NCBI GenBank assembly: GCA_963841735.1
Contig: CAWJDT010000004.1
Location: forward strand, 320,001-384,000
Origin: an uncultured Actinomycetes bacterium
Lineage (GTDB): Bacteria; Actinomycetota; Thermoleophilia; RBG-16-64-13
DNA: 64,000 nucleotides
Reading direction: 5' to 3'
Of the stretch, positions 28,570-55,947 are shown one piece after another. How positions within the stretch are numbered: the stretch's first letter is position 1; each line of letters begins with the position of its first letter. The notes under the pieces were generated by a model. It saw only the letters and a program-made list of their open reading frames with translations, was not told where the DNA came from and did not search any database. The position numbers and the translations under genes were made by a program.

Positions 28570-30123
28570 CTAGGGAAGCAGGCGCCCCAAGGGCATAGAG
28601 GCGGCCGCATCGATCCCCAGATAGTCTGGGTACTCGATACGGAGCCCGGACAAAGCCGCGGCACCGATCATGGCTGCATTGTCGGTGCAATACGAGATAG
28701 CTGGGACCACCACGTGGAAACCAGCGTTCTGCCCCTGCTCCGCTAACTGGCGCCGCAAAAGGGAATTGGCGGCGACCCCGCCCACGACCGCGATGGTCTT
28801 GACCCTCTCGTGCTCGGCAGTGCGCACCGTCTTCGCCACCAACGCGCCCACAACAGCCCGCCGGTATGAGGCCGCTATGTCGGCCGCCCTCTCCTCCCGC
28901 TGCTGCGGAGTCATGCCTCGCAGTTGGTAGTACAGGGCGGTCTTGACACCCGAGAACGAGAAGTCCGGACGCACTGAACGCCGCAGGCCGAAGGGAAACG
29001 AGAACGCGTCAGGATCGCCCGTTTCGGCCAGTTGGTCCAACTCCCTGCCCCCCGGGTAGCCAAGGCCCAGCAATCTGGCTCCCTTGTCGAACGCCTCCCC
29101 GGCGGCATCGTCGAGGGTCTGCCCCAGCAGGCTGAAGGTGCTGTGGCCGTCCACCCGCACCAGCATGGTATGCCCCCCGGAAGCCACCAAGGTGACCATG
29201 GGCAGTGGCGCCGACGGATCGCTCAGCCAGGCCGCGGCCAAGTGTCCGTGCAGATGATTCACAGGGTAGAACGGCAGCTTACGGCTCCAGGCGATAGCCT
29301 TGGCCGTCTGCACACCGACCAGCAAAGCCCCTATGAGCCCGGGGCCTACCGTAACAGCCACACCCCCCAGGTCCGCCACTCCACAACCCGCCTGCCGCAG
29401 TGCTTCGCGCACCACCGCCGTCATCCGCTCCACGTGGGCGCGGCTGGCAACCTCGGGGACCACCCCCCCATAGCGCTCGTGGATGGCATCTTGGGAGTGC
29501 GACACGGAGGCTAACACCTCGCCCGAAGGCGTGAGCACAGCTGCCGCCGAATCGTCGCACGAGGACTCTATGGCAAGAAGCGGTCCCGCCGCGCCGCCGC
29601 CACCCGGCACAGTCGCACCATCACACGGTCCCGCCGCGCTGTCAGGAACGCCGGCCCCGCGCATCATCACCAACGCATCCTCTCCCGTGTCCGGGTAGTA
29701 CCGCCGGCGCACTCCTGCTGTGACAAACCCCAGGCTCCCGTAGAGGGCCACAGCCCCTTCGTTCCCACCGCGCACTTCCAGCAGTACCCCCCGCCCCGCC
29801 AAGCAGGCCGCGGCTACAAACTCAGACACCAGTGCCCTTGCGATCCCCTGCCGCCTCATCGCAGGCGCTACGGCCACATCCATCACATGCCACACGTCGG
29901 GGTAGCGGCGACCCAGAAGAAAGCCCACCACCCTGTCCCCGGCCTCTGCCGCCACGGCGACCGTGCTGCGCGCGGCTTCCTGCTCCAGCTCGTCGCCGAT
30001 CATGGTCGGGCTCCAAGGCAGAGTGAACGAGTCCTTCTCGATCGCCAGTACCGCCGGCAGATCGGCAGCCATCATCTCCCGTATGGCCGGTGCAGTCGCC
30101 ACCTTATGCTCCGCCCGGGCCAT
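28570..30123 (-). CDS. tsaD: fused RimI-like N-acetyltransferase / t6A threonylcarbamoyltransferase TsaD
   Basis: N-terminal GNAT (LEVR..N..AVALY..GF..RRRYY..EDA) in frame with LAIESSCDD, HLHGH, SGGHT, GEAFDK and CTDNAAMI. Confidence 0.94.
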   Translation of the reverse strand: MARAEHKVATAPAIREMMAADLPAVLAIEKDSFTLPWSPTMIGDELEQEAARSTVAVAAEAGDRVVGFLLGRRYPDVWHVMDVAVAPAMRRQGIARALVSEFVAAACLAGRGVLLEVRGGNEGAVALYGSLGFVTAGVRRRYYPDTGEDALVMMRGAGVPDSAAGPCDGATVPGGGGAAGPLLAIESSCDDSAAAVLTPSGEVLASVSHSQDAIHERYGGVVPEVASRAHVERMTAVVREALRQAGCGVADLGGVAVTVGPGLIGALLVGVQTAKAIAWSRKLPFYPVNHLHGHLAAAWLSDPSAPLPMVTLVASGGHTMLVRVDGHSTFSLLGQTLDDAAGEAFDKGARLLGLGYPGGRELDQLAETGDPDAFSFPFGLRRSVRPDFSFSGVKTALYYQLRGMTPQQREERAADIAASYRRAVVGALVAKTVRTAEHERVKTIAVVGGVAANSLLRRQLAEQGQNAGFHVVVPAISYCTDNAAMIGAAALSGLRIEYPDYLGIDAAASMPLGRLLP

Positions 30124-31009: not shown

Positions 31010-31484
31010 CTTGGCCTGCCTCTTCCCAGCGTTGCCGGGCGGACCCAGTCACCGCCTCCAACAGCAGGGTGCGGGTGTGCAGCGACTCGTGGCCGATGGT
31101 CACCGTCCAAGACGCCGTCCCCAGCCGGGCGGCGCCCGCTTCGGGCCACTCCACCAGCGTGACGGCGTCTTCACTCACGTACTCCTCCAGAGCCAGGGCG
31201 TCGTCGTCGCCGATCTCCTCCAGGCGGTAGAGATCGAGGTGCTGCACGCGCACCCGTCCTGAGTAGATGTTCGCGATGGTAAACGACGGGCTCCGCACGG
31301 GGTCGGTCACTTCCAGAGCCACGGCCACGGCTCGCACCAGGGTGGTCTTACCGGCCCCCAAGGGCCCGTACAGCAGCACCAGGTCCCCCGGGCGGAGCGC
31401 GCGGGCCAACCGCCGCCCGATGCGTTCCATACCGTCCAGCGTAACTCCCCGGCTGCTCACCAACAGGCGGTCGTCATCTACCAC
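31002..31484 (-). CDS. tsaE: t6A biosynthesis ATPase TsaE
   Basis: GPLGAGKTT, VRSPSF, HLDLYRL and LVEW. Confidence 0.95.
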   Translation of the reverse strand: MVDDDRLLVSSRGVTLDGMERIGRRLARALRPGDLVLLYGPLGAGKTTLVRAVAVALEVTDPVRSPSFTIANIYSGRVRVQHLDLYRLEEIGDDDALALEEYVSEDAVTLVEWPEAGAARLGTASWTVTIGHESLHTRTLLLEAVTGSARQRWEEAGQDD

Positions 31485-32264
31485 AGATGCAGCTGCTCTA
31501 TCTGTTCGGGCGCGGGATTCGCCGGACCCGGGGCGGCGGACTTTCCGTCAGGCTCCGAAGCGCGATCATGCCCGCCAACCCCAGGTGCGGATTCGCACTC
31601 CTGGAACGCTCCGGTCTCCACGTCGGCACCTCTCCCCGCCGCCACTCCAGCAACAACCTGCGGTCCCCGAGACAGAAGCACTTTGAGCCTGCCAAAGTCC
31701 TCCTCGAGAACCTTCTTATTCGTCGGCGCGTAGAGAGCGGCGGCGGGATGGAACACCGGGAATATCAGGGTCTGCACGCCCGCGAGCGTCCGCTCTTTTG
31801 CTTTGCCGTGCACCGCCGTCATGCTCAGCTCCGTTTCGCCAAGGAGCTTCGTGGCAAAGCGGCCCAGCGTGCAGATGATCTTGGGCCGGATGATGGCGAT
31901 CTGCTCAAGCAGATGCGGACTGCAGGCCTCAATCTCGTCGGGAGCCGGATCCCGGTTATCCGGGGGTCTGCACTTCACCACATTGGCGATGTATACGTCG
32001 GCCCTGGTCAGACCGATGCCGGCCAGCAGCTCGGTCAAGAGCCGCCCGGCCCTGACCCACGAAAGGCTCGCCCTGTTTGTCCTCATGAAATCCAGGGGCC
32101 TCACCCACAAACATCAGTTCCGTCTCCGGGCTACCCACCCCAAAGACCACTTGGGTCCGCCCCCCGCACAGCCCACAGTCTGAGCACTCGCGGAGCGATT
32201 CGCCCAGAGCAGCCAGTGCCTCCGCGGCGGTTGCGGTCCCTGCTGATGTCACCTCGGGATTCAT
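31478..32264 (-). CDS. uracil-DNA glycosylase family 4 (Fe-S), one apparent frameshift near 32050
   Basis: CxxC, GEAPG..ED..G.PFVG in one frame; NVVKCRPP.NRDP and FHPAAAL in the next. Removing one G restores GQAGRLL. Confidence 0.88.
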
Positions 32265-32497
32265 GCCCACAGGGTAGCAGAAGACCCGCTCAGCGGGTTT
32301 GCCGGCCGTTGCCGACGCACACGCGGGCTGTTATCCTACCGACGCGCCGCGTGGTGGATCTCTGACTCCTGCCAGCGCCCAGAACGCCTACCCGACGGAG
32401 GCAAAGCCTGGGCCCCCGGATTGTCCCCCCATCGGCTCAGAGATAACTCCGGCCACGTCTGGTATCTGCGGGCAGAACTGGAACAGGCAGGTATTTC

Positions 32498-34038: not shown

Positions 34039-35327
34039 ATGAAACCGGTAATTCAGCTGGCCCTTGACTTCGTCGATCTTCCCCGCGCCATCCAGGTAGC
34101 CGAGGAAGCGGTCGCCGGCGGCGCCGACTGGCTGGAAGCCGGCACTCCCCTGATCAAGAGCGAGGGGCTCGAAGCCATCAGGGCACTCCGCGCCCACTGG
34201 CCCGATCGGGTCATCGTGGCCGACATGAAGACCATGGACGCCGGACGCGCCGAGGTGGAGTGCGCAGCCAAGGCGGGCGCTCGGGTGGTCGGCGTGCTGG
34301 GCGCGGCTTCCGACGCCACCATCAAGGAGTGCATCGAGGCGGCCCGCAACTACGGCGCCGAGATCGTGGTGGACATGATCCAGGTGGCCGACGTGGTCGC
34401 TCGCGCCAAGGAAGTCGAGGCGATGGGCGCCAACTACGTGGGCATCCACCTGGCCATCGACGAGCAGATGCAGGGCAAGACCCCGTGGGACACGCTGCGA
34501 GCGGTAGCCAAGGCCGTGTCCATACCCATCGCGGTGGCGGGCGGCATCAACTCCGAGACGGCCCCTCTGGCCTTGGAGGCTGGAGCCTCCATCGTCGTGG
34601 TGGGAGGCGCCATCACCAAGGCGGTCGACGCCACTGCCGCCACCCAGGCCGTGAAGCAGGCCATGGAGACCGGCGTCGCCGTCAAGTCGGAGTTCTTCGT
34701 GCGCGCCACCGGCCCCGACATCCGCGAGATGCTCACCCGGGTCTCCGCCGCCAACGTCTCCGACGCCCTGCATCGCAGCGGCGACATCCCCGGCATGCGT
34801 CCCCTGGCCCCCGGGACCAAGATGGTAGGTCCGGCCCTGACGGTGCGCACCGGGCCCGGGCGACTGGGCCAAGCCGGTGGAGGCCATCGACAAGGCTCAG
34901 CCCGGCGACGTGCTGGTGATCGACGTGGGCAACGTCCTCCCGGCCGTCTGGGGCGAGCTGGCCACCAACTCCGCCATCCAGAGAGGTCTGGCCGGCGTGG
35001 TCATCTACGGAGCCGCCCGCGACACCGGCGACATCCGCGCCCTCGGCTTCCCGCTGTTCTGCACGCTCATCACCCCCACCGCCGGTGAGGCCAAGGGCTT
35101 CGGCGAGATCGGACGTGCCCATCCGCATCGCCGGCGTCAACATCTCGCCCGGCGACTGGATCATCGGCGACGACGACGGCGTGTGCGTCATCCCCAAAGA
35201 GAAGGCCGTGGAGTACACCAACCGGGCCATGGACGTGCTCGAGAAGGAGAACCGTCTGCGGGCCGAGATCCAGGCCGGCAGCACGCTCAGCCAGGTGGGC
35301 TACCTGTCGCGCTGGGAGAAGAAGTAA
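34039..35327 (+). CDS. hxlA: 3-hexulose-6-phosphate synthase fused to RraA/HMG-aldolase-like domain; apparent frameshifts near 34850 and 35110
   Basis: QLALD, EAGTPLIK, ADMKTMDAG, AVAGGI and VVGGAIT (HPS), then NVSDAL, GDWAKPVEAID, AVWGELA, GAARD and PGDWIIGDDDGV (RraA-like). Confidence 0.88.
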
Positions 35328-37814: not shown

Positions 37815-39065
37815 CTACCGGGAGTTCTTGCGCATCTGATCAAGAAACTCAGAGTTGGATTTCGTCTCTTTGAGCTTGCCGATCAGCAATTCGATGGCAG
37901 CATTCGGATCGAGCGCGTGCAGCACGGCCCTCAGCTTCCACACCATCGCGGCTTCGGCCGGCTCCATCAGAAGCTCTTCTTTTCGAGTGCCCGAGTTCTC
38001 GATGTCGATAGCCGGGAATATGCGCTTGTTGGCCAGTTGCCTGGTGAGCCGCACCTCCCAGTTGCCCGTGCCCTTGAACTCCTCGAAGATGACCTCGTCC
38101 ATCCGCGAACCGGTCTCCACCAGAGCGGTGGCCAGGATGGTCAGCGATCCGCCTTCTTCGATGTTGCGGGCCGCGCCGAAGAACTTCTTGGGAGGATACA
38201 GGGCCGTCGAGTCCACGCCGCCCGACAGGATGCGGCCGCTCGCCGGAGCCTGCAGGTTGTAGGCCCGGGCCATACGAGTGATGGAGTCGAGGAGCACGAC
38301 CACGTCCTTGCCCACCTCGACCAGCCGCTTGACCCGCTCCAGCACCAGCTCGGTCACCTGCACGTGGTTCTCGCCGGGCATGTCGAAGGTCGAGCTGACC
38401 ACCTCGCCGTTCACCGTGCGCTCCATGTCGGTGACCTCTTCGGGCCGCTCGTCCACCAAGAGCACCATCAGGTGCACTTCTGGGTTGTTGGCGGCGATGG
38501 CGTGAGCGATGTCCTTGAGGATGGTGGTCTTGCCCGCCTTGGGCGGCGACACGATCAGACCCCTCTGCCCCTTGCCCAGCGGGCTCATAATGTCCATCAC
38601 CCGGGCGGAGAGGTTATCCGGGGTAGTCTCAAGACGCAGCCGCTCGTCGGGGAACAGGGGCGTCAGCGAATCGAAGGTGGGGCGATGACGGGCCTGCTCG
38701 GGATCCATGTCGTTGACGGTCTGGATCTTCAGGAGCGCGTGGTACTTCTCGTTGTCGCGCGGGGTACGGACCTGACCGTTGATCTCGTCGCCTCTGCGCA
38801 ACTTGAAGCGCCGGATCTGCGACAGCGATACATAGATGTCGGAGTCCGACTGGGTGTAGCCTTGAGTGCGCAGAAAACCGTAGCCGTCGGGCAGGATGTC
38901 CAGCAGTCCCGTCCGCAGATGAAGCCCCCGGTCCTGCGACTGCTCGTTCAGGATCTTCATGATGAGATCCTGCTTGGAGTACTTGCGGAAGTTCTTGATG
39001 CCCAACTCGCCCGCGACGAGGTGCAGGTCGGACAGGAGTTTGGGCTCCAGTTCAGCTATCGCCAT
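37815..39065 (-). CDS. rho: transcription termination factor Rho
   Basis: DGYGFLR, PPKAGKT, LVDERPEEVTDM, LDSITR and EEFKGTGN. Confidence 0.99.
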   Translation of the reverse strand: MAIAELEPKLLSDLHLVAGELGIKNFRKYSKQDLIMKILNEQSQDRGLHLRTGLLDILPDGYGFLRTQGYTQSDSDIYVSLSQIRRFKLRRGDEINGQVRTPRDNEKYHALLKIQTVNDMDPEQARHRPTFDSLTPLFPDERLRLETTPDNLSARVMDIMSPLGKGQRGLIVSPPKAGKTTILKDIAHAIAANNPEVHLMVLLVDERPEEVTDMERTVNGEVVSSTFDMPGENHVQVTELVLERVKRLVEVGKDVVVLLDSITRMARAYNLQAPASGRILSGGVDSTALYPPKKFFGAARNIEEGGSLTILATALVETGSRMDEVIFEEFKGTGNWEVRLTRQLANKRIFPAIDIENSGTRKEELLMEPAEAAMVWKLRAVLHALDPNAAIELLIGKLKETKSNSEFLDQMRKNSR

Positions 39066-39153: not shown

Positions 39154-40185
39154 TCATCTAACCCCCAGACCCACCTGTGGACCCTCGTTGTCAGACCTGT
39201 GTATCGTCATGATCTTGCGTACCGCGTGACAGGCCGAGCACGCAATGAGAGTCTCGGTGCGAGTACCATCGGGGTCAAAAGCGACCGCCTTGAGGAACCT
39301 GCCGGCGGTTACCGCAGTAGCCACCATGATAACCCCTTCTCCCACAAGATCGCGAGTGGTAAGTCTCGCCTCGATGTCTTCGATCCCGGCCGCCCTCGCC
39401 AATTCGACCTGGTGCCGCGAAACCGGCCAGAACCGCGCCTGTATCTCTCCACCCAAGCAACGCAGAGCAGCCGCCGTCGTGATGCCCTCAGTCGATCCCC
39501 CGATGCCTATGTACATGTCCACACCCGCGTCGCCCGTGGCCGCGGCCAAGCTGGCAGACACATCCCCGTCGAGTATGAGCCTCACCCGCGCCCCCGCCAG
39601 CCGGATCTGCTCCACCAATTCCTCGTGACGAGGCCGGTCGAGCACTACCACCACGATGTCCGCCGGCTTCCGGCCCAGAGCAGCCGCCAGCGCCTTGACG
39701 TTCTTCTCCACCGGCGCGTCCAGGTCCACCGCATAGGCCGCCTCGCGGGGAACGACGAGCTTCTGCATGTACATTTCCGGTACCGGCATCAGGCTACCCG
39801 CCGGCCCCACCGCCAGCGTTGTCATAGCCCCGTCGACACCGCGCGCTAGGGAGCTGGGAGCCTGCAATGGGTCGAGTGCCAGATCCCAGGGCTCCGGGTC
39901 GGCCGTCAAGCCTTCAGAACCCGAACGGCTCGAGAACCACGGCCCCTTAGGATCGCCCACTTCTTCGCCAACGCTCAGAGCGTGCGGACCCGAGCCCCCC
40001 CTACGCCCGGCGACCACGCGGCCACGAATGAGCAACCTGCTCAGCTCTGCTGCCATCGCCTCCCGCGCCGCCGTATCAGCGGCAAGTCCGTCGCCCCTGC
40101 CCAGCCACTGCGCGGCCGCGAGAGCGGCACCCTCAGTGACTACAGTGAATCGTTGGCAGATGCATCGCCCCTCACTCGTGGCCAC
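39154..40185 (-). CDS. glpX: class II fructose-1,6-bisphosphatase homologue with degenerate active site
   Basis: VTE.AALAA, GEEVG, YMQKL, LDRPRH, DGDV and GIGG..EG identify the family; the GEGE and DPLEGT motifs are altered. Confidence 0.85.
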   Translation of the reverse strand: MATSEGRCICQRFTVVTEGAALAAAQWLGRGDGLAADTAAREAMAAELSRLLIRGRVVAGRRGGSGPHALSVGEEVGDPKGPWFSSRSGSEGLTADPEPWDLALDPLQAPSSLARGVDGAMTTLAVGPAGSLMPVPEMYMQKLVVPREAAYAVDLDAPVEKNVKALAAALGRKPADIVVVVLDRPRHEELVEQIRLAGARVRLILDGDVSASLAAATGDAGVDMYIGIGGSTEGITTAAALRCLGGEIQARFWPVSRHQVELARAAGIEDIEARLTTRDLVGEGVIMVATAVTAGRFLKAVAFDPDGTRTETLIACSACHAVRKIMTIHRSDNEGPQVGLGVR

Positions 40186-41119
40186 CGGTCACCTCCTCGC
40201 CGCGCTCGATGACGTCGTACAGAGCGTCGACCACCAGGCCCACCGTGTCGTCTATGCTCACATTGTCTACAACCAGCGTGCCCTCTGCCGCGGCCCGCCC
40301 AAGGATGAAATCCTGCACCTTGCGTATCTCCTCGAACTGCTCCAGATATCTGGCTATCGCCCTGCGGCCCGACGTCTGCTGCTCCCTGACCAGGAAGTGG
40401 CTGCGATGAAGTTTTGCGTCTCGCACCGCGACTACCATGGACAACAACTGGATCTCCCCCATACGCTCCCTGGCCCCCGTAACCGCCAGCATCCCGGGGA
40501 CCAGGTGCACCCCTTCCACCACTATGCTGGTGCGCTCCTCTATGGCCCTGTCGAGCACGGCGAGCAAACCCACATTTACCATGTCCACCTGCTGCATGAA
40601 GCCCACCAGATCCGGGTCCAGGTCGGCCCCCAAAGGGATCCGCACTCCCTTCCCCGCCTCATACGACGAGTAGTGGATCGCCGGCAGCAGGCTCTCCGAG
40701 AAGAAGGCCCTCATGACCTGTCGTATGGCGTCGGTCGAGATGATACGCACGATACCCAACCGGTCGGCCACTTTGGCGGCGATGGTGCTCTTGCCCACCC
40801 CGGTCGCTCCCCCGATCAGTACCACCACCGGATTGTCCTCCCCGGCCATCCGGTTCCACAGCTGGTAGCGACGCAAATAGCGCTCGCCCTCCACTTCGGC
40901 GAGCACGACCTCCACCATCGAACGCAGATCGTCGAGATGCACCTCCCGGTCGGCCCTCTGGAGCAACTCGCGCTCGACGTCCATGGCGACAGCGAATGCC
41001 CGTTCTGGAGCCAATCCCGTCGCGGTGAGGGTGGTCGCCAGAAGCCCCTTCGAGAAGGGGACCTTGTGCCCTTCGCTGACCAGTTGCACGGGAAAGCCTT
41101 CCGACGGTGCGGTCTGCAT
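40172..41119 (-). CDS. 2-phosphoglycerate kinase (ATP-cone + P-loop, archaeal type)
   Basis: N-terminal PFSKGLLA..L...G ATP cone, GGATGVGKST, STDAIRQVMR, HYSSYEA and VEGVHLVPG. Alternative start at GTG 41182. Confidence 0.88.
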   Translation of the reverse strand: MQTAPSEGFPVQLVSEGHKVPFSKGLLATTLTATGLAPERAFAVAMDVERELLQRADREVHLDDLRSMVEVVLAEVEGERYLRRYQLWNRMAGEDNPVVVLIGGATGVGKSTIAAKVADRLGIVRIISTDAIRQVMRAFFSESLLPAIHYSSYEAGKGVRIPLGADLDPDLVGFMQQVDMVNVGLLAVLDRAIEERTSIVVEGVHLVPGMLAVTGARERMGEIQLLSMVVAVRDAKLHRSHFLVREQQTSGRRAIARYLEQFEEIRKVQDFILGRAAAEGTLVVDNVSIDDTVGLVVDALYDVIERGEEVTGGHE

Positions 41120-41156
41120 GCGCCGCTCCCCTGCCTTCTCTGAGCCGCTCACCGAT

Positions 41157-42545
41157 TCATGCCTGGCTTTCGAACCGCTCACTCGCCATCGCCGCCAACT
41201 CCTTCGTCAACTCCGCCAGTCGACCCCGGCGAGCTGGATACACCTCGACGGGAACGTTGTCCACCGCAACAATCGGAAGGCCTCGCGCCTCCGCCTCTTC
41301 GGCCACTACGTCGATAGCCGCCGCCTTTATCTCGCTCAACACTATCTCCACATTGCTCATCCGCTCCCCTGCCAAATCGGCCTTCAGGGCCATCCGATCG
41401 GCGAGGTTGGTGGATACCAGTTCCACCTTGCAGCCCCACTCCTCTTCCAAGTGCCCCCGCAGCACGCCCTTCTGCGCCTCCGGCGCAGTGGTGAACAAGG
41501 CGACCCGCCGGCCCTCCACGGCTGAGACCGGGTGGGGCCTCAGGACCACCGGCACTATCTCCATGCCGGGCCTGACCTCACTCACCGCGTCCATAACGGC
41601 CTTGACCTTCTCCCTCGTGGCCGCAGGCTCCTCCGCCATCGTCAGCGCCACCGCGTCGCTGATAAGAAGCCTATACCTCCCCAGATAGCCCGTCAGGTGC
41701 TCAAGGGGCTGACCCGCCCCTGCCACCAGAACGCACACATCACTCGCGGCCGGAGGGATAGCGGCCCCGCTTCCCTCAAGCAAGATCAGACCAGGACGCA
41801 GGCTGTTCGCCAATTCGATCCCATCCGCCACATTGGAGACGAAGGGACTACCCGCCATGCCTCCCCCGCACCGCCGGCAACCGATCGTCTTCACCCGGCT
41901 GAGAACCGCATCCTCAAAGTGATCGGAAGCCGCATGGCGCCCCTGTCTGCTCCACTTGAGCAGATCGGCAATCGTCAGCAGACCGCTTCCTCCATCGATG
42001 ACCTCCGGGACGGCCGGACCGCCACGACCCATGGCCACAATCACAACGCCGGGACTCCCGCCCCGTCCGATCACGACTTCTTGAAGGACCCGCGCCATGT
42101 AACCGCTTATCGCCGTCTTGCCCACTCGCTTGCCGGTACCTATGACCGAAAACGATGGACTTGTGCAAAGGCGCTTACAACTCGCGGGGCTGAAGTGAAA
42201 ATCGGAACCTGAGTAGCCTACGTTTCGCGCGAGGGTCTCGCTGATAAGGCGGAAACGCTGCTCGTATCCTAACACCGGTTCATCACTCAGGTCAACGACC
42301 ACCTCCGGCCGGTACTCCTCGAGCAGACGAGCAAGGCCTCGCGTCCAGTCCTCGTCGAACACAACCGGTAGACCGTAGAGCGCCCCGGCTTCGCTCTCGA
42401 GTCGCTCGCTCCTTATCTTCTCGGTGCCTCCGAGAAATAGAGCAGCGCGAAAATCAAACCGCTCTGCGGCCTGGCGCAGAGCATCCGCCACCACCTCCGG
42501 GTAGTGCTCACCATCGATCAGAGCTACCGCCGCCGGCCTAATCAC
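41157..42545 (-). CDS. cpgS: cyclic 2,3-diphosphoglycerate synthetase
   Basis: LIDGEHYP, FLGGTEK, DLSDEPVL, GTGKRVGKTA, MGRGGP, HAASDHFED, GCRRCGGG.AG and LEGSGA, recognised as cDPGS family motifs. Adjacent to 2-PGK. Confidence 0.9.
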   Translation of the reverse strand: MIRPAAVALIDGEHYPEVVADALRQAAERFDFRAALFLGGTEKIRSERLESEAGALYGLPVVFDEDWTRGLARLLEEYRPEVVVDLSDEPVLGYEQRFRLISETLARNVGYSGSDFHFSPASCKRLCTSPSFSVIGTGKRVGKTAISGYMARVLQEVVIGRGGSPGVVIVAMGRGGPAVPEVIDGGSGLLTIADLLKWSRQGRHAASDHFEDAVLSRVKTIGCRRCGGGMAGSPFVSNVADGIELANSLRPGLILLEGSGAAIPPAASDVCVLVAGAGQPLEHLTGYLGRYRLLISDAVALTMAEEPAATREKVKAVMDAVSEVRPGMEIVPVVLRPHPVSAVEGRRVALFTTAPEAQKGVLRGHLEEEWGCKVELVSTNLADRMALKADLAGERMSNVEIVLSEIKAAAIDVVAEEAEARGLPIVAVDNVPVEVYPARRGRLAELTKELAAMASERFESQA

Positions 42546-43291
42546 ATCGCGTCGAACTCCACGATGTCCTCGCCCCCGTGGAACGGATAGCGCCTGGAGA
42601 TCTTCGCATGGTCACCCTGTATCTCGATCACGTTGTAGCAGGGTTTCGTGTCGCCCCGCAGGCGTAGCGTCGCCACGGTGCCCGCATTCACAATGTACAT
42701 GTTCTCTAACCGCCAGGCATAGGGCACGTGCTTGTGCCCTGAGAGCACCAGGTGCACCCCGCACTCCACCAGGACCTCCAGAACATCGCCGGCGTCGTTC
42801 ACGATGTTGCGTTCGCGCCCAGTACCGGGGATGGGCAGCAGATGGTGGTGCAGCAGGAAGATCTTGAAAGCATCCGGATCCTGCGTGAACGCCTCTTTGA
42901 TCATGGGATAGCGGTGCCTGCCTATGCGCCCATTGTCCAGGTCGGGCTCGGTGGAGTCCACCCCAACTAGTGTGACTCCGTTCTTACGAATCACCATCTC
43001 CCTTGTAGCGAAGAGCCTCTCAAAGTGCGCGTAGCCGACGTTCCGGCTGTCGTGATTACCGGGCACCACGAGTACATCGGGACAGGTCAACCGGTCTAGG
43101 TATTCCCTGGCTTCGCGGAATTCCTGGCGATAACCCATGGTGGTGAGGTCGCCCGTCACCACCACCACATCGGGAGCGAGGTCGTTCACCTCCACCAGGG
43201 CGCGGTCGAGCAGATTGGGCACGAAGTACTGCGACCCCGTGTGAAGGTCAGAGAGGTGCGCTATCACGCACGAACGACTTGCTCTGTCCAT
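42542..43291 (-). CDS. calcineurin-like metallophosphoesterase (CpdA/Icc-like)
   Basis: SDLH, TGDLT, PGNHD, HHH and SGHKH: all five MPE motifs. GTGA overlap with cpgS. Confidence 0.92.
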   Translation of the reverse strand: MDRASRSCVIAHLSDLHTGSQYFVPNLLDRALVEVNDLAPDVVVVTGDLTTMGYRQEFREAREYLDRLTCPDVLVVPGNHDSRNVGYAHFERLFATREMVIRKNGVTLVGVDSTEPDLDNGRIGRHRYPMIKEAFTQDPDAFKIFLLHHHLLPIPGTGRERNIVNDAGDVLEVLVECGVHLVLSGHKHVPYAWRLENMYIVNAGTVATLRLRGDTKPCYNVIEIQGDHAKISRRYPFHGGEDIVEFDAM

Positions 43292-43365: not shown

Positions 43366-44430
43366 CTACGTGGTGGCTATGAGATCCTCCACGGCCGCCA
43401 AGTCCGCGCGACAACGCTTGATGGGAGGAGACTGCTCTATGGCTGTCTGCGGATCTTTGAGTCCATGACCGGTGATTACCGCCACCAGCGTGTCTCCAAA
43501 CGGGAGTCCGGCATCCCGGTACTTCAATACCCCGGCGATACCGGCCGCGGAAGCAGGCTCGCAGAAGACGCCCTCTTTCTGAGCCAACAACCGCTGAGCT
43601 GCCAGAATCTCGTCGTCAGTAACATCACGGATGACGCCCCCCGAGTCGCGCGCCGCCGCCAAGGCTTCTTCACCCCGAGCGGGCTTACCTATGCGGATGG
43701 CCGTAGCCACTGTCTCTGGGAACTCCACGGTCTCGCCCCGCACCAGTGGGTTGGCGCCCTCAGCTTGAAAGCCCCACACCACTGGCAGCCGCGAAGACTT
43801 GCCCAACTCATGGTATTCGCGAAAACCCTTCCAGTAGGAGGTGATGTTGCCGGCGTTACCCACTGGGATAGTCAGCATGGCCGGCGCGTCGCCCAAGACG
43901 TCCACGATTTCAAACGCTCCCGTCTTCTGTCCCTCGATGCGATACGGGTTGAGTGAATTCACCAGCGTGATGGGCTGCCGTTCCGCGATCTCCTTGACGT
44001 AGTCAAGCGCCAGATCGAAGTTGCCTTCGATCGCGATGGCCACCGCCCCGTGCAGTAGCGCTTGCGACAGCTTACCCATGGCGATCTTGCCCTCGGGGAT
44101 AAGTACCACGCAACGCAGACCCGCGCGCGCCGCGTAGGCCGCAGCCGACGCGGAGGTGTTGCCTGTGGAAGCGCAGATGACCGCCGTGGCGCCATCTTCC
44201 ACCGCTTTGGTGATTGCCATGGTCATCCCCCGGTCTTTGAACGAACCGGTGGGATTCAGCCCCTCATACTTCAAGAACACTCGGCAACCCAACTCGGCGC
44301 TTAGCCACTCCGCGGGGATGAGCGGAGTGTCGCCCTCACCCAGCGTCACCGCGACCGTCTCCGCTTTCAGCGGCAGGTAGGGCCGATAGCGCTCGATCAA
44401 CCCAAAGGGCTTGCGCTCTTGGTCGGCCAC
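43366..44430 (-). CDS. thrC: threonine synthase
   Basis: [35 protein letters not shown] and TGHGLKDP. Confidence 0.97.
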
Positions 44431-44431
44431 C

Positions 44432-45709
44432 TTATAGCACCCTCAGCGTCAGGGGCTCGTTCCGGCAGCACATCAGGTTCTTCATCTGCTCGATAGCATC
44501 GAAGAAGTTCCGTTCTTTGGTGGGGTGGGTGATCAGCACCAGTTCGGCCTCGTCTCCTCTACCCTTCTGGATCATACTGGCGATCGACACGCCTAGACCA
44601 CCGAACACAGCCGCGATCTGGGCAAGAACGCCCGCGCGGTCGATGACGTTCATCTTGATGAAGAAGGCCGACTCCACCTGTTCCGAGGGAAACAGCTCTA
44701 GGCTGCGATAGCAGGAGCAGCTCTGCAGAAAGCCGACGTCCTTGGTGTTGGCGATCGACACTATGTCACTCACCACAGCGGTGGCAGTCGGCGCGCCGCC
44801 GGCGCCCGGGCCCATGAGCATGATCTCGCCTATGGCACTCCCCCGCAGGAAGACGGCGTTGTTAGAGCCGCTGATAGCAGCCAGTGGGTGGTCTTTAGGC
44901 AGTAGAGCCGGGAACACCCGCACGCTCACCTTGCCGTCGATGAGCCGCGCCGCGCCTATCAGTTTGACCACGAAACCGAAATCCTTGGCGTAACGCACAT
45001 CGTCCAAGGTGATGTCCTGGATGCCCGAGAAGGCGACATTACCCAACGTCACTCGCGAGTGGAAGGCGATAGAGGCGAGAATAGCCATTTTGGCGGCAGC
45101 GTCCGCCCCTCCCACGTCGGCGGTGGGGTCTGCCTCTGCGTAGCCCAGCTCCTGGGCTTTGGCCAGGATCTCGGGGTAGTCGCCCTCTTCGTTGTACATC
45201 CGAGTGAGGATGTAGTTGGTGGTGCCGTTGACAATGCCGTACACCGTGTGGAGCTCGGCGGCGATCATGCTCTCGCGCATCACCTTGATTATGGGGATAG
45301 CTCCGGCCACCGACGCCTCGAAGCGCAGATGCCGTCGCTGATCACGCGCCAGAGTGAACAGCGCCTCTCCTTTGGAGGCAAGCAGCTGCTTGTTGGCGGT
45401 GACCACGTTCTTGCCCTTGCGCATGGCCGCGTCGATGAAGGTGAAGGCGGCACCGGTGCCACCGATGACCTCCACGATGATCTCGATGGTCGGATCGTCC
45501 ACGATCTCCGCGAAATCATCCGTGAAGAGCCCGGCCGGTGCATCGGACGGCATTTTCCTAGCGTCGATCTCCAGGACCTTGGCCACCTGCAGATCGACCC
45601 CCGTGCCCTCCAGGATGCTGTCGTGCTCTTTCTGGATGAGCTGGTAGACGCTCGCCCCGATAGTGCCGAATCCCAAGAGTCCTATGCGTACGATCCTATC
45701 CCTATCCAT
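44432..45709 (-). CDS. hom: homoserine dehydrogenase with C-terminal ACT domain
   Basis: [39 protein letters not shown] and GPGAG. Confidence 0.97.
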
Positions 45710-45717
45710 GCCTTCCC

Positions 45718-47055
45718 CTACAGTACGGGTTGGTCTTGGTCGTGCAGCGGACGGTGCTTCGCCACCAGATCCGCGTATTGCTCCCGTTCGATGATCACCC
45801 TGGCTTGACCTTCATTCACCATAACAACGGCGGGCCGAGGGCTGCCGTTGTAGTTGGATGCCATGGCGTAACAGTAGGCGCCCGTAGTCGGCATCACCAA
45901 TATGTCTCCCGGCTCTGGCTTGGCGATGACCGCGTTGCGGATAAGGATATCGCTGCTCTCGCAGTGTTTGCCCGACACAGTCACGGCCGAATCAGCCGGA
46001 GCATCCGCCCGGTTGGCGATCATCCCCTGGTACTCCGCATCGTAAAGCATGGGCCTGATGTTGTCACTCATGCCCCCGTCAACACTGACATAGGTGCGCA
46101 CACCCGGTATGTCCTTGATGGTGCCCACCCGGTAAGCGGTAATGCCCGCCTTACCGACGATGGACCTGCCCGGTTCTATGAGCACGCGCGGCATGGCTAG
46201 CCCCATGGCGGTCATCTCTTCCCTGACGCCCTCCACCTTCACCTCGGCATACTCGCCGATGGTGGCGGGTGTGTCCGCCTCGGTGTAGCGGATGCCGAGA
46301 CCTCCGCCCACGTTCAGATACCGGCAGTCAAAGCCGAAACCCGCGTGCGCCTGCCCTATGAGCCGCACCAGGATATTGATGGCCTTACGAAACCCGTCCA
46401 GCTGGAATATCTGACTGCCGATGTGAGCGTGCAGGCCTACCAGATCCAGGTGCGGCGCTGCCATGGCCTCCCGGATGGCCTCCAGCGCCACTCCATCCCC
46501 AAGCCCGAAACCGAACTTGGAGTCAACCTGCCCTGTCTCGATATACGAGTGTGTGTGCGCTTCAACCCCAGGAGTGATACGCAGCAGAACCCCTTGCTTA
46601 CCGCCGCGGGCTCCCACCATCTCCTCCAGCAGGGCCAGCTCCTGGAAACTGTCGACCACCACGAAGCCCACACCGCCGGCAAGAGCATAATCAAGCTCCG
46701 CGCGGGTCTTGTTGTTACCGTGAAAGAAGATGCGCTCGGCGGGAAAACCGGCCGCCTTGGCCACGTAATACTCCCCGCCTGACGAGACATCGATGGAGAG
46801 GCCCTCCTCCAGAACGATCTGCTCCACGGCCACTGACGAGAAGGCCTTGCTGGCGTAGATGACCTCAAAGTCGTCGGTATGCTGCTTGAAGGCCGCCATA
46901 TACCGGCGGCACTGGTCGCGAATGGACTTCTCCTCATAGATCATGAGGGGTGTGCCGAACTCGGCCACCAGTTCAACCACGTCGCACCCGTCAACCTCCA
47001 GGTGCCCCGCTGAGTTGTGTGTAGCGGTGATGGGATAAACGAGCGTGTGAGTCAA
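45718..47055 (-). CDS. lysA: diaminopimelate decarboxylase
   Basis: YASKA, HGNNK, SKFG, HIGSQ, EPGRS, HCESSD and GAYCYAMASNYN. TTG start with GGAGG RBS. Confidence 0.97.
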   Translation of the reverse strand: MTHTLVYPITATHNSAGHLEVDGCDVVELVAEFGTPLMIYEEKSIRDQCRRYMAAFKQHTDDFEVIYASKAFSSVAVEQIVLEEGLSIDVSSGGEYYVAKAAGFPAERIFFHGNNKTRAELDYALAGGVGFVVVDSFQELALLEEMVGARGGKQGVLLRITPGVEAHTHSYIETGQVDSKFGFGLGDGVALEAIREAMAAPHLDLVGLHAHIGSQIFQLDGFRKAINILVRLIGQAHAGFGFDCRYLNVGGGLGIRYTEADTPATIGEYAEVKVEGVREEMTAMGLAMPRVLIEPGRSIVGKAGITAYRVGTIKDIPGVRTYVSVDGGMSDNIRPMLYDAEYQGMIANRADAPADSAVTVSGKHCESSDILIRNAVIAKPEPGDILVMPTTGAYCYAMASNYNGSPRPAVVMVNEGQARVIIEREQYADLVAKHRPLHDQDQPVL

Positions 47056-47137
47056 GAAAGCCTCCAAGAACGACAAACACCGGTACGTTACCACAAGCGG
47101 CTAGGGGCTGCTGTAGCTGCTAGAATTCACCTTCACG

Positions 47138-47494
47138 ATGAGTGAAGAGACACCGACCTTCTCCTATTATCGGGGAACCAAGCAGCCCAGCTTTGCCACC
47201 CGTACGGAACTCGAGGCAGCCAAACTTTTCGACTACCACCGGATAGCCTGGGAATACGAACCGCGCACCTTCATACTCGAGCAAGACGAGCGCGGGAACA
47301 TCCTTGAAGCTTTCACCCCCGACTTCTTCCTGCCTGACCTAGATCTGTTCGTGGAAGTCACAGAGATGAAGCAATCGCTTGTCACCGCCAAGAACCGCAA
47401 GGTCCGCAAGGTCCGGGAGAAGTACCCGGACATCCGCGTGAAGATACTTTACCGCAAGGACTTCATGCGCATGGCCCAGAAGTACGGCCTCTGA
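47138..47494 (+). CDS. small conserved hypothetical protein, PD-(D/E)XK nuclease-like
   Basis: WEYEPRTF..FTPDFFLPDLDLFVEVT pattern; 7 nt upstream of hpt. Confidence 0.7.
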   Translation: MSEETPTFSYYRGTKQPSFATRTELEAAKLFDYHRIAWEYEPRTFILEQDERGNILEAFTPDFFLPDLDLFVEVTEMKQSLVTAKNRKVRKVREKYPDIRVKILYRKDFMRMAQKYGL

Positions 47495-52826: not shown

Positions 52827-54762
52827 ATGGGAGAAGTCAAGACCTTGGCCGTCGTCATCTTCTTGGTGATCGTAGGTATCGTTCTCTTTGTATCGTTCTT
52901 CACCGCCCGCCGGGCCCGTTCCTCCAGCGGCTACTACGCTGCCGGCGGGCGCATCCACTGGGGCGTCAACGGTATCGCCTTCGCGGGTGACTACCTCTCG
53001 GCTGCTTCCTTCCTAGGCATCTGCGGCATGATCGCCGTAGCCGGTTACGATGGCTTTTTGTACTCCATCGGCTACCTCGCTGGATGGGTCGTAGCTCTGT
53101 TCGTCGTCGCAGAGCCCATGCGCCGCCTGGGAAGATACACCTTCACCGACGCCCTGGACGCCAAGTTCAACAAGCGTAGCCTCAAGCTCTGGGCGGCCAT
53201 CGCTACGCTCATCGTCTCGATCTTCTATCTGATTCCTCAGATGGTGGGCGCTGGGGTACTCATCGAGCCGCTGCTGGGCTTTCCGCACTGGGTGGGAGTG
53301 GTGCTAGTCGGAGCCATCGTTATCGCCATTGTGGCGACCGCCGGTATGACCTCCACTACGTACGTCCAGTTCATCAAGGGCTCACTGCTCATCAGTATTC
53401 GCGTTGGTTATCGTCGTAGCCCTCTGCGTCCGCGGTCTATCGACCTCTCCGGACCAAGGTGGCCGAGTCCCCTTCTATGACTACAAGACCATTACGGCGA
53501 CAACCGACACAAACGGCGCGATAGTGCCCGAGGACACCTCATACCAGGTTGTCGGGCAGCAGGCTCAGACCATCAAGGGCAAGGAAGTCACCTTCGTCAA
53601 GCTGTCGAAGGACGGCATGGCTACCTGGTGGAAGGCCGACACCGCCAATGACGTCGTGGCTCTGCACGAGACGCAGGAAGTGGTGACCCTGGCGGATGGG
53701 ACCAAGTACATCAACGGAGCTCCAGAGTCCAAAGACAACAAGCTCAGGCTGGTCGGCAACCTGAGCGCCATCGACGGCCAGACCGCGGTACAGACAGGGG
53801 CGATCAACCCCTTCCGGTTCCTTGCCCTGATCGGCGACCCGGACACCACCATCAACCTCTGGAAGTCGACGTCCTTCAAGGATGGTGGGGACAGCGTGTC
53901 CGTTTACTACTCCGTCTCGGTCGCGGGTGACACCGTCGCTCGACCGGGGCAGTCGTTCAAACTCGAGGGATCGTGGACCGACAAGGTGGACTTCATCTCC
54001 CTCATGATCGCGCTGTTCCTGGGCACCGCGTCATTGCCGCACATCCTCATCCGCTACTACACAGTCCCCAGTCAACGGGCAGCTCGCAAGTCTACTGTGG
54101 TCGCAATCGCAGCCATCGGGTTCTTCTACATCCTCACCTTGTTCCTGGGCCTCGGCGCCATGTCGAGCTCCACGGTGAACCCGCTGGACAACAACATGTC
54201 CGCGCCGCTCTTGGCGGAGTCGTTCGGCACCTTCCTGTTCGCGATGATCTCGGCCATCGCCTTTGCGACTGTGCTGGGCACTGTCAGCGGTCTCATCATC
54301 GCCGCCTCCGGCGCTGTGGCGCACGACCTGCTCGACCGCTTCGGCGGCCACATCAAGAACGACAAGCAGAAGGTCTACGCCGGCCGCATCGCCGCATTCG
54401 TGGTGGGGGCGGTCGCCATCCTGTTGGGTATCGCTTTCCAGGGCATCAACGTCTCGTTCTTGGTGGGCTTGGCATTCGCGGTCGCCGCGTCGGCCAACCT
54501 GCCCTGCATCATCATGATGCTGTTCTGGAAGCGCACCACCTCAAAAGGCATGGTCGCCTCGATCATCGTGGGAATCGTCGTCTCGGTGGGCATCATCCTC
54601 TTTTCGCCCACCGCTTGGGAACTCTACGGCCTCAACCCGGCCGACGCCCCGCTCCCACTCAAGAACCCGGGCATCGTATCTATCCCCGCGAGCTTCCTCG
54701 CCATCTACCTGGTGTCGAAGCTGACCAAGCCGGACATGCTGGAGGAGCACGCCAAGGCGTAG
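52827..54762 (+). CDS. actP: cation/acetate symporter ActP (sodium:solute symporter family), one apparent frameshift near 53400
   Basis: NGIAFAGDYLSAASFLGI, YLIPQMVGAG, LGTASLPHILIRYYTV, AFATVLGTVSG and AASANLP. Confidence 0.9.
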
Positions 54763-54889: not shown

Positions 54890-55947
54890 CTAGAATACGT
54901 CTTTCGCCTTCAGCGGGTAGCCGGTGTAGCCGGCCGTCGCGTAGTAGACGGCTCTATCGAAGAACCGTCCCAGTTCGCGGTTCAGATCGACTGCTCGCTG
55001 TAGGTCCATGGCCGACTCCCACACTCCGTGGGTGCGGGCCGTCATCCAGACTTCCCTCTTCAGCAGCAAGATCGCGCTGACCAGTTCCGGCAGTGGCAGA
55101 CCCTGGGCAGCCCTCGTCTCGCCCAGCTTGTGAAACCATTCGCCGAGGTTCTGATCGGAGGGTTGGCCGCCGAAGTACTGGCCCACTTGACTGAGCGCGA
55201 ACTCGCTCGCGTTCACCAGCTCCTCGTCCGACACGACTCCGTACGACGGTGTCTGTGAGCTGGCCCTAAGGTCCTGAAGCCACAGCCGAGCGATCTCTTC
55301 TCCGTAGCTGTCGACGAATCCCTTAGGCAAACGGCTGATCGGGCCCAGCGGGAGCACCACTCGTCTGAACACTTCGTTGATCGTCTGCGCGCAAGCAGCG
55401 TAGACGGCGGACAGACCGGTGAGTATGCCCTCCCAGCCGGCGATCTTGCCCCAGTACGGCTCCCCCGCCGAAGTCGCGGATGGCCAGCAGGAAGAACAGG
55501 ATCGTAAGCAGACCGAATACCACCTGCAATGCCCGGTTGAGCTTCAACGTACCTATGAACATGTAGGCCGTGAAGACACCCCAGGCAACGAAGAACCAGG
55601 CCATAGCCATTTCGCTCGGAGCGGCGGCTTGTTTGGCATCGGGGAACATACCGGGCATCAGCCAGAGAGCGACCAACGTCAGCCAGAAGAAGCCCGTAGG
55701 AGGTGAAGGCCAGCGTTCCGAACGTGTTGTTCTTGCGATACTCCATGATCCCGGCGATAACCTGTGCGATGCCGCCATAGAAGATGCCCATGGCTAGGAT
55801 CATGCTGCTCAGCCCGAAGAAGCCCGCGTTGTGGATGTTGAGCAGAATTGTCGTCAGGCCAAACCCCATAAGGCCGAGTGGCGCGGGATTGGCGTTGGTA
55901 TCCAGCAGTTTGGTAACCGTTTCGTTAGAACTGATCGAGGTGGCCAT
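54890..55947 (-). CDS. satP: SatP/YaaH (GPR1/FUN34) acetate uptake channel fused to a C-terminal helical RsbRD-N-like domain; apparent frameshifts near 55695 and 55450
   Basis: [24 protein letters not shown]...FTSYG and FFW; the last helix [27 protein letters not shown] continues in frame for about 150 further aa. Confidence 0.83.

Follow-up and report, generated by a model that had tools for sequence, protein, structure and literature searches.

We describe a predicted three-gene module for the metabolism of cyclic 2,3-diphosphoglycerate (cDPG), found in a 64,000-nucleotide stretch of DNA (the window; GenBank assembly GCA_963841735.1, contig CAWJDT010000004.1, positions 320,001 to 384,000) from an uncultured Actinomycetes bacterium of the Thermoleophilia. 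A first-pass annotation had drawn attention to an adjacent 2-phosphoglycerate (2-PG) kinase gene and cDPG synthetase gene (cpgS) at 40172..42545 on the minus strand, within the run of genes between thrC and rho, and had presented them as a complete archaeal pair in a bacterium. Both open reading frames are indeed intact there, with no internal stop. That description understates the spread of the pair, which recurs as part of a module across the deep Actinomycetota, and its span omits a calcineurin-like metallophosphoesterase (MPE; 42542..43291, minus strand, 249 amino acids; PF00149, E=4e-17) whose stop overlaps the start of cpgS by 4 bases. Judged from the genes alone, the organism probably synthesises cDPG, and we favour, with somewhat less assurance, a model in which the three genes would form an ATP-driven store running from 2-PG through 2,3-diphosphoglycerate (2,3-DPG) to cDPG, with its own release enzyme. 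The broader proposal, that this MPE family is the cDPG hydrolase that has lacked a gene and that the MPE-cpgS-kinase operon is a complete cDPG cycle old in the Actinomycetota, is put forward only tentatively.

The cpgS gene (41157..42545, minus strand, 462 amino acids) is strongly supported as encoding a member of the cDPG synthetase family, with that activity predicted for it. Residues 7-459 align with the cDPG synthetase (cDPGS) of Methanothermus fervidus (PDB 8ORK/8ORU) at E=1.8e-108, and the homology is full-length, extending to the unique N-terminal domain (CpgS_N, PF27272); our local copies of Pfam and NCBIfam returned no family for the protein. The paper on the archaeal structure (PMC10690619) gives twelve M. 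fervidus residues, E45, K46, K145, R146, K149, T150, D208, E305, P335, T353, E404 and K406, as binding substrate, Mg2+ or nucleotide, and eleven of these are identical in the window protein (E42, K43, K139, R140, K143, T144, D208, E305, T353, E405 and K407). The twelfth, the paper's 'P335', is F335 when counted along the alignment; at this position the window protein has L335, and P337 is retained. Across an alignment of 51 sequences (the window protein and 50 near-full-length proteins chosen from 150 listed), K43, K139, R140, K143, T144, E405 and K407 are invariant, with D208 present in 48 and E42 in 47. E42 and K43 correspond to active-site residues contributed across the subunit interface, a homodimer feature of cDPGS, and both are present. 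The nearest named relatives, at 72-73% identity, are from Thermoleophilia and 'Actinobacteria bacterium RBG_16_64_13', and many close relatives already carry the name cDPG synthetase from JGI or NCBI. A curated annotation of Rubrobacter cpgS presumably exists as well.

The kinase frame lies downstream (40172..41119, minus strand, 315 amino acids). Its longest form spans 40172-41182, but translation more likely starts from the ATG at 41119, which a GGGGAG stretch precedes. The protein comprises an ATP-cone (PF03477) followed by a P-loop domain with the Walker A motif GGATGVGKS, and its best families are PRK04220 and PRK12337, at 284 bits each, ahead of PRK12338 (130) and PRK12339 (73), so that the best hits do not fall in other P-loop families, a risk acknowledged when the pair was first proposed. 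The match to PRK04220 has E=1.2e-84 and, given this value and that for CpgS against 8ORK, neither identification is a chance one. Over 300 columns the kinase is also 35% identical to the kinase that adjoins cpgS in the archaeon Candidatus Methanolliviera; our sequence search found no solved structure of a 2-PG kinase. The assignment of the protein as 2-PG kinase-like is well supported, below the cut-off for formal membership, and the earlier claim of two motif-complete enzymes stands strongly for the synthetase and at the level of family for the kinase. We also considered whether the kinase might substitute for a missing thrB and rejected this: a TIGR02535 'proposed homoserine kinase' is present at a related locus (L015), the same family sits beside the kinase in L013, L045 and L058, the kinase lies away from the thr genes in L009-L012, and archaea pair it with cpgS.

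The third gene encodes an MPE with the five metal-binding motifs, in which all the metal ligands are present (D15, H17, D48, N79, H148, H186 and H188); of 54 bacterial sequences, 53-54 retain them. Its AlphaFold model (mean predicted local distance difference test score 92.6) is a single globular domain with a beta-sandwich fold, for which the closest solved folds are GpdQ and Rv0805 (Foldseek template-modelling score 0.73-0.78 by query). Fold and metal ligands are held in common with GpdQ, Rv0805 and CpdA; identity to GpdQ and Rv0805 is 18-22%, and the MPE differs from them in a basic signature (GRER, GHKH, RxR) that it shares with archaeal relatives. The family-specific basic residues, R159, R161, K187, R210 and R212, would line the active site. 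The metallophosphoesterase superfamily includes phosphoanhydride hydrolases. Taken together, the evidence makes the protein a reasonable candidate for hydrolysing cDPG or for acting as a 2,3-DPG phosphatase; we put the case for action on one or other of these compounds at slightly better than even, and that for action on cDPG specifically at somewhat short of even.

Relatives of the MPE reach well beyond bacteria. Of 120 long-protein matches listed, 87 are two-domain proteins, those named coming from Thermococcales, Theionarchaea, Methanofastidiosia, Heimdall/Promethearchaeota, Natronoplasma and Desulfurobacterium. In the first domain of these proteins the metal ligands are retained, as are the basic residues at 161, 187, 210 and 212 in 86-87 of the 87 and that at 159 in 70; the second domain is degenerate. 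Pyrococcus yayanosii encodes a 42%-identical relative; in Thermococcales the protein has about 500 amino acids and both domains, whereas the window MPE is single-domain. An adjacency of MPE and cpgS in Thermococcales was considered and is not supported, in that PYCH_14380 spans 474 codons against 503 amino acids in the homologue, and only about 0.5 kb is left upstream of TK1039 (as inferred from the positions of single-nucleotide polymorphisms). Of the 120 long matches, 19 contain both MPE and CpgS domains, MPE first, and might have been taken for fusions. The six examined in full contain out-of-frame stretches, so we read them as frameshift read-throughs and treat them as showing adjacency, not fusion. 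A protein joining cpgS and kinase (P0263) looks like the same kind of read-through.

We examined how the three genes are distributed by scanning GTDB genomes, which gave at least 598 pattern matches, of which 533 were confirmed and the best 80 loci kept, a sample biased towards close relatives. Sorted by title, synteny and tree position, these comprise 57 Actinomycetota-type, 19 archaeal and 3 Bacillota loci with 1 unassigned; the 57 divide into 15 Rubrobacter-type loci and 42 others, and include two against their titles. These two, L048 ('uncultured archaeon') and L061 ('Eubacteriales'), have the Actinomycetota gene order and tree position and are probably mislabelled bins. The MPE lies directly upstream of cpgS at 54 of the 57 loci, including all 15 of Rubrobacter type, with one cut by a contig end and two lacking it, and the kinase is directly downstream at 40 of the 42 others, the remaining two being cut by contig ends. 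The MPE thus travels with cpgS more faithfully than does the kinase (54/57 vs 40/57). Thermoleophilia, Coriobacteriia, Aquicultor and other deep Actinomycetota have the module at one shared position in the chromosome, and rho follows it in most Actinomycetota loci. The flanks vary by class, with thrC, sppA, a glucosidase gene or argS upstream and tal or glpX downstream; the MPE-cpgS junction is constant, and in L009-L012 the trio is kept away from the thr genes.

Elsewhere the surroundings of cpgS differ. Among the 19 archaeal loci, three of them cut short downstream, the kinase appears once, adjoining cpgS in Methanolliviera (L047); 18 are Methanobacteriales-type, and in these, unlike the window, neither kinase nor MPE was found near cpgS. 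The order at L067 is kinase, cpgS, apgM, and at the Bacillota locus L044 it is GntR, cpgS, ABC transporter, phosphoglycerate mutase (iPGM); these mutase neighbours connect the bacterial gene with phosphoglycerates in other lineages as well. The Bacillota cpgS has a GntR regulator on one side and a PhnS/AfuA-like ABC transporter on the other (L044:9053-16827; L025, L029), possibly an uptake and utilisation system for cDPG or phosphoglycerates. A search of plasmids returned only a lone cpgS, a full-length homologue with 45% identity on pSRIMHP, a linear plasmid of Streptomyces rimosus (L081:7962-9254); its annotation is hypothetical, and no kinase or MPE is annotated nearby.

The history of the module appears to be a long one. 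In a FastTree phylogeny of 130 CpgS sequences (midpoint root, weak backbone) the window protein groups with L001-L008 (support 1.0) inside a wider clade that includes the Thermoleophilia-titled loci (0.996), and Rubrobacter, most Coriobacteriia and Methanobacteriales each form their own clade with support 1.0; the Actinomycetota proteins are not one clade under this root. Spearman correlations of tree distances with those of rho are 0.80 for cpgS (n=44), 0.70 for MPE (n=41) and 0.72 for the kinase (n=30), values reached by none of 999 permutations, and this fits mostly vertical descent of all three genes. All module genes are under purifying selection: pairwise ratios of nonsynonymous to synonymous substitution rates (dN/dS; four pairs per gene, three for rho) are 0.014-0.058 for MPE, 0.12-0.22 for cpgS and 0.05-0.16 for the kinase, so that the MPE is nearly as constrained as rho (0.007-0.037). 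We rejected a recent horizontal island or recent archaeal import, given that GC content and GC at third codon positions (0.72-0.82) are in line with flanking genes, the module keeps its position from class to class and its tree distances follow those of rho. Most likely, deep-branching Actinomycetota have carried the module for a long time, upstream of rho and in the same orientation as the core genes.

In the mechanism that we propose, the kinase would first convert 2-PG and ATP to 2,3-DPG, a reaction assigned from its family, with the ATP-cone probably coupling its activity to nucleotide status. CpgS would then use a second ATP to close 2,3-DPG to cDPG, releasing ADP and inorganic phosphate, as judged from its family, its residues and the reaction of the M. 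fervidus enzyme. Finally, a binuclear MPE would most likely hydrolyse the phosphoanhydride of cDPG to return 2,3-DPG, or alternatively would dephosphorylate 2,3-DPG; fold, ligands and linkage are observed, and the substrate is our reading of them. A carbon and phosphate reserve that turns over beside gluconeogenesis seems a likelier role than heat protection at molar levels, because an enzyme dedicated to release is in keeping with turnover and because storage is argued for Methanothermobacter thermautotrophicus in passages of a review (PMC1224877). The same passages describe fast cDPG turnover and hydrolase activities in that methanogen, one form being membrane-bound and inhibited by K+ and inorganic phosphate. 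The reaction that we propose for the MPE is that of this hydrolase; the comparison is by activity alone, since the passages name no gene from which a sequence could be taken.

A number of observations weigh against this model. The kinase scores below the curated PRK04220 cut-off (284 against 343 bits) and belongs to a family with other specificities, mevalonate-3-phosphate 5-kinase being among the next relatives. The missed cut-off says little on function, because 10 of 11 cpgS-adjacent kinases tested miss it too, including the archaeal one of Methanolliviera (317); the sole kinase above it, that of L067, has a duplicated ATP-cone. According to a passage of PMC2686161, 2-PG kinase also occurs in methanogens without cDPGS, and the kinase alone therefore does not imply cDPG. 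No kinase was found in the fetched DNA of any of the 15 Rubrobacter-type loci, and Coriobacteriia-type L051 and L052 have cpgS and kinase without MPE. None of the 19 archaeal cpgS loci fetched (flanks of 13 to 10,000 bases) contains the MPE, nor was it found in the cpgS neighbourhoods covered in Methanobacteriales, the source of the measured hydrolase activity; one described hydrolase is membrane-bound (passages of PMC1224877), and the MPE models as a single globular domain. The compatible solutes reported in the relevant passages of PMC3505630 for two Rubrobacter species and Pyrococcus furiosus are trehalose and mannosylglycerate, along with di-myo-inositol phosphate, with cDPG unmentioned, although that assay was a targeted one (high-performance anion-exchange chromatography) and those two species are only presumed carriers of the genes. 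Supported splits also conflict with the rho tree for each gene (5 of 24 for cpgS, 4 of 17 for MPE and 2 of 16 for the kinase). As a separate observation, the kinase-less Rubrobacter-type loci (L014, L016, L018, L019, L024, L026, L030, L034, L035, L037, L040, L041, L049, L050 and L056) keep MPE-cpgS, and the locus does not explain the source of 2,3-DPG there.

The alternative that survives best, though we think it unlikely, is that the kinase and CpgS make cDPG and the MPE has an unrelated housekeeping function, such as that of a cyclic-nucleotide phosphodiesterase of CpdA/Rv0805 type, and shares an old cluster with them. Its nearest solved relatives would fit such a function, as would the CpdA or Icc labels that JGI gives to many of its homologues, and because the region from argS to rho is conserved as a whole, adjacency alone is cheap; the MPE's absence beside archaeal cpgS extends, moreover, to the sole fully flanked Bacillota locus. 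However, the MPE scores only 42 bits against PRK11148 (CpdA), for which the cut-off is 225, and its basic residues at 159, 161 and 187 are unmatched in alignments with GpdQ or Rv0805. The flanking genes also change between classes while the MPE-cpgS junction stays, and in L009-L012 the trio lies away from the thr genes.

It is also conceivable, but in our view improbable, that cDPG serves as a low-level signal or regulatory metabolite, with synthase and phosphoesterase paired as for cyclic nucleotides and the neighbouring GlpX-like protein as a possible binder. This protein (39154..40185, minus strand; PF03320, E=1e-96) is a neighbour of the module whose part in the pathway would be putative, scoring 220 bits against TIGR00330 where the cut-off for class II fructose-1,6-bisphosphatase is 259. 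The metal-binding motifs GEGE and DPxxGT have a catalytic role in GlpX; in the window, the GEGE and DPxxG(T/S) of solved GlpX proteins align to GRRG and DPLQAP, and GEGE and the threonine are likewise missing from the Rubrobacter copies inspected. Since the motifs are lost yet purifying selection persists (dN/dS 0.09-0.20), it may be a phosphosugar-binding pseudoenzyme, which would suit a signalling role, as would the overlap of the MPE and cpgS genes, the regulation suggested by the ATP-cone and the omission of bulk cDPG from the targeted Rubrobacter analysis. Against this, an altered GlpX is found at only 20 of the 80 loci, with transaldolase in the same slot at 26 and a transaldolase-like gene there in most other classes, any cDPG receptor would be putative, and the Km values given for the characterised synthetase in passages of PMC12136491 are millimolar.

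Least probable of all, in our estimation, is that the bacterial enzymes have moved to another sugar-acid phosphate, or that CpgS runs mainly in reverse for ATP recovery: the kinase family is chemically plastic and its cpgS-adjacent members score low, Rubrobacter has cpgS without a kinase at the locus, the M. fervidus enzyme is reversible (passages of PMC1224877) and the Bacillota gene adjoins an uptake system, but the 2,3-DPG-contacting residues E42, K139 and R140 are conserved, the archaeal Methanolliviera kinase falls below the cut-off too and phosphoglycerate mutases neighbour cpgS in two other lineages.

Set beside the M. fervidus pathway, the full-length synthetase, catalytic residues, kinase family and predicted two-step chemistry are the same, whereas the window host is bacterial, its genes are clustered with an MPE ahead of rho and its product is a predicted one. 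Synthetase and kinase genes are adjacent, as in the window, in the cpgS-pgk2 pairs of Thermococcales described in parts of PMC4890121 (P. yayanosii PYCH_14390-14400) and PMC5663688 (Thermococcus kodakarensis TK1039-TK1038). The 2023 structure paper (PMC10690619) holds cDPG and its synthetase to be exclusive to methanogenic archaea. Sections of other work infer cDPGS in ancestral ammonia-oxidising archaea (PMC7554672) and describe engineered cDPG production in Thermus thermophilus (bioRxiv 2025.02.21.639460; PMC12136491). In print we found neither a natural bacterial cDPG pathway nor a gene for cDPG hydrolase, in a survey of main texts that covered few subscription journals and could have missed a mention.

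As a pathway the two-enzyme pair is already known, and databases hint at its host range, which has been under-recognised; novelty is limited by the automated annotation that names these bacterial proteins cDPG synthetases. What we add is the organisation in three genes, together with a hydrolase candidate that can be tested. An operon conserved and kept under selection in bacteria would mean that cDPG is to be seen less as an extremolyte of archaea than as a reserve metabolite of wider occurrence. If the broader, tentative proposal above is right, Thermoleophilia, Coriobacteriia, Rubrobacteria and Aquicultor-type bacteria would widely use cDPG as a carbon and phosphate reserve that has been overlooked, and the compound would not be confined to hot methanogens. 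In the MPE there is a specific candidate, simple to assay, for the enzyme that degrades cDPG, which has been known as an activity from the early 1990s onwards. The bacterial pair could also be of use in the bioproduction of cDPG, where the synthetase of M. fervidus requires high K+ and is run in assays at 55-65 °C.

As transcribed, the order of genes is lysA, hom, thrC, MPE, cpgS, kinase, glpX-like and rho, all on the minus strand. Upstream context is provided by lysA-hom-thrC (43366..47094; hom and lysA named from translations), with thrC at 43366..44430 (TIGR00260), and downstream context by rho (37815..39065; TIGR00767, 662 bits). The thrC stop lies 74 bases from the MPE start and the cpgS stop 37 bases from the kinase ATG, and the 3' end of the kinase gene overlaps the glpX-like frame; co-transcription of the module is inferred from this close spacing. 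Scans for promoters and terminators gave counts close to those of chance and were uninformative, and an Rfam search returned two tRNAs and nothing else. While hom and thrC occupy 43366-45709, there is no copy of thrB between thrC and rho, and a TIGR02535-type homoserine kinase, whose gene follows thrC in some related loci, was not found within the window.

Turning to the remainder of the window, an open reading frame of 118 amino acids (47138-47494, plus strand) adjoins hpt, has no Pfam or NCBIfam match and is kept in all eight of the closest loci; we take its motif pattern to resemble that of a PD-(D/E)xK nuclease, putatively. An apparent RimI acetyltransferase-TsaD fusion follows tsaE and tsaB (28570-30123, minus strand), as judged from the translation alone. 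For 31 window genes the growth-temperature proxies are 0.417 for IVYWREL and 8.0 for charged-minus-polar residues, in a small, GC-rich sample for which a composition-based formula would give about 56 °C, and by this composition the host does not look hyperthermophilic. Open reading frames split across frames occur at 31478-32270, 34039-35327, 52827-54762 and 55213-55778, named from translations as uracil-DNA glycosylase-like, a hexulose-phosphate synthase fusion, a sodium:solute symporter and acetate-uptake-like. That several ordinary genes are split in this way suggests sequencing indels, and the cDPG module itself is free of frame splits.

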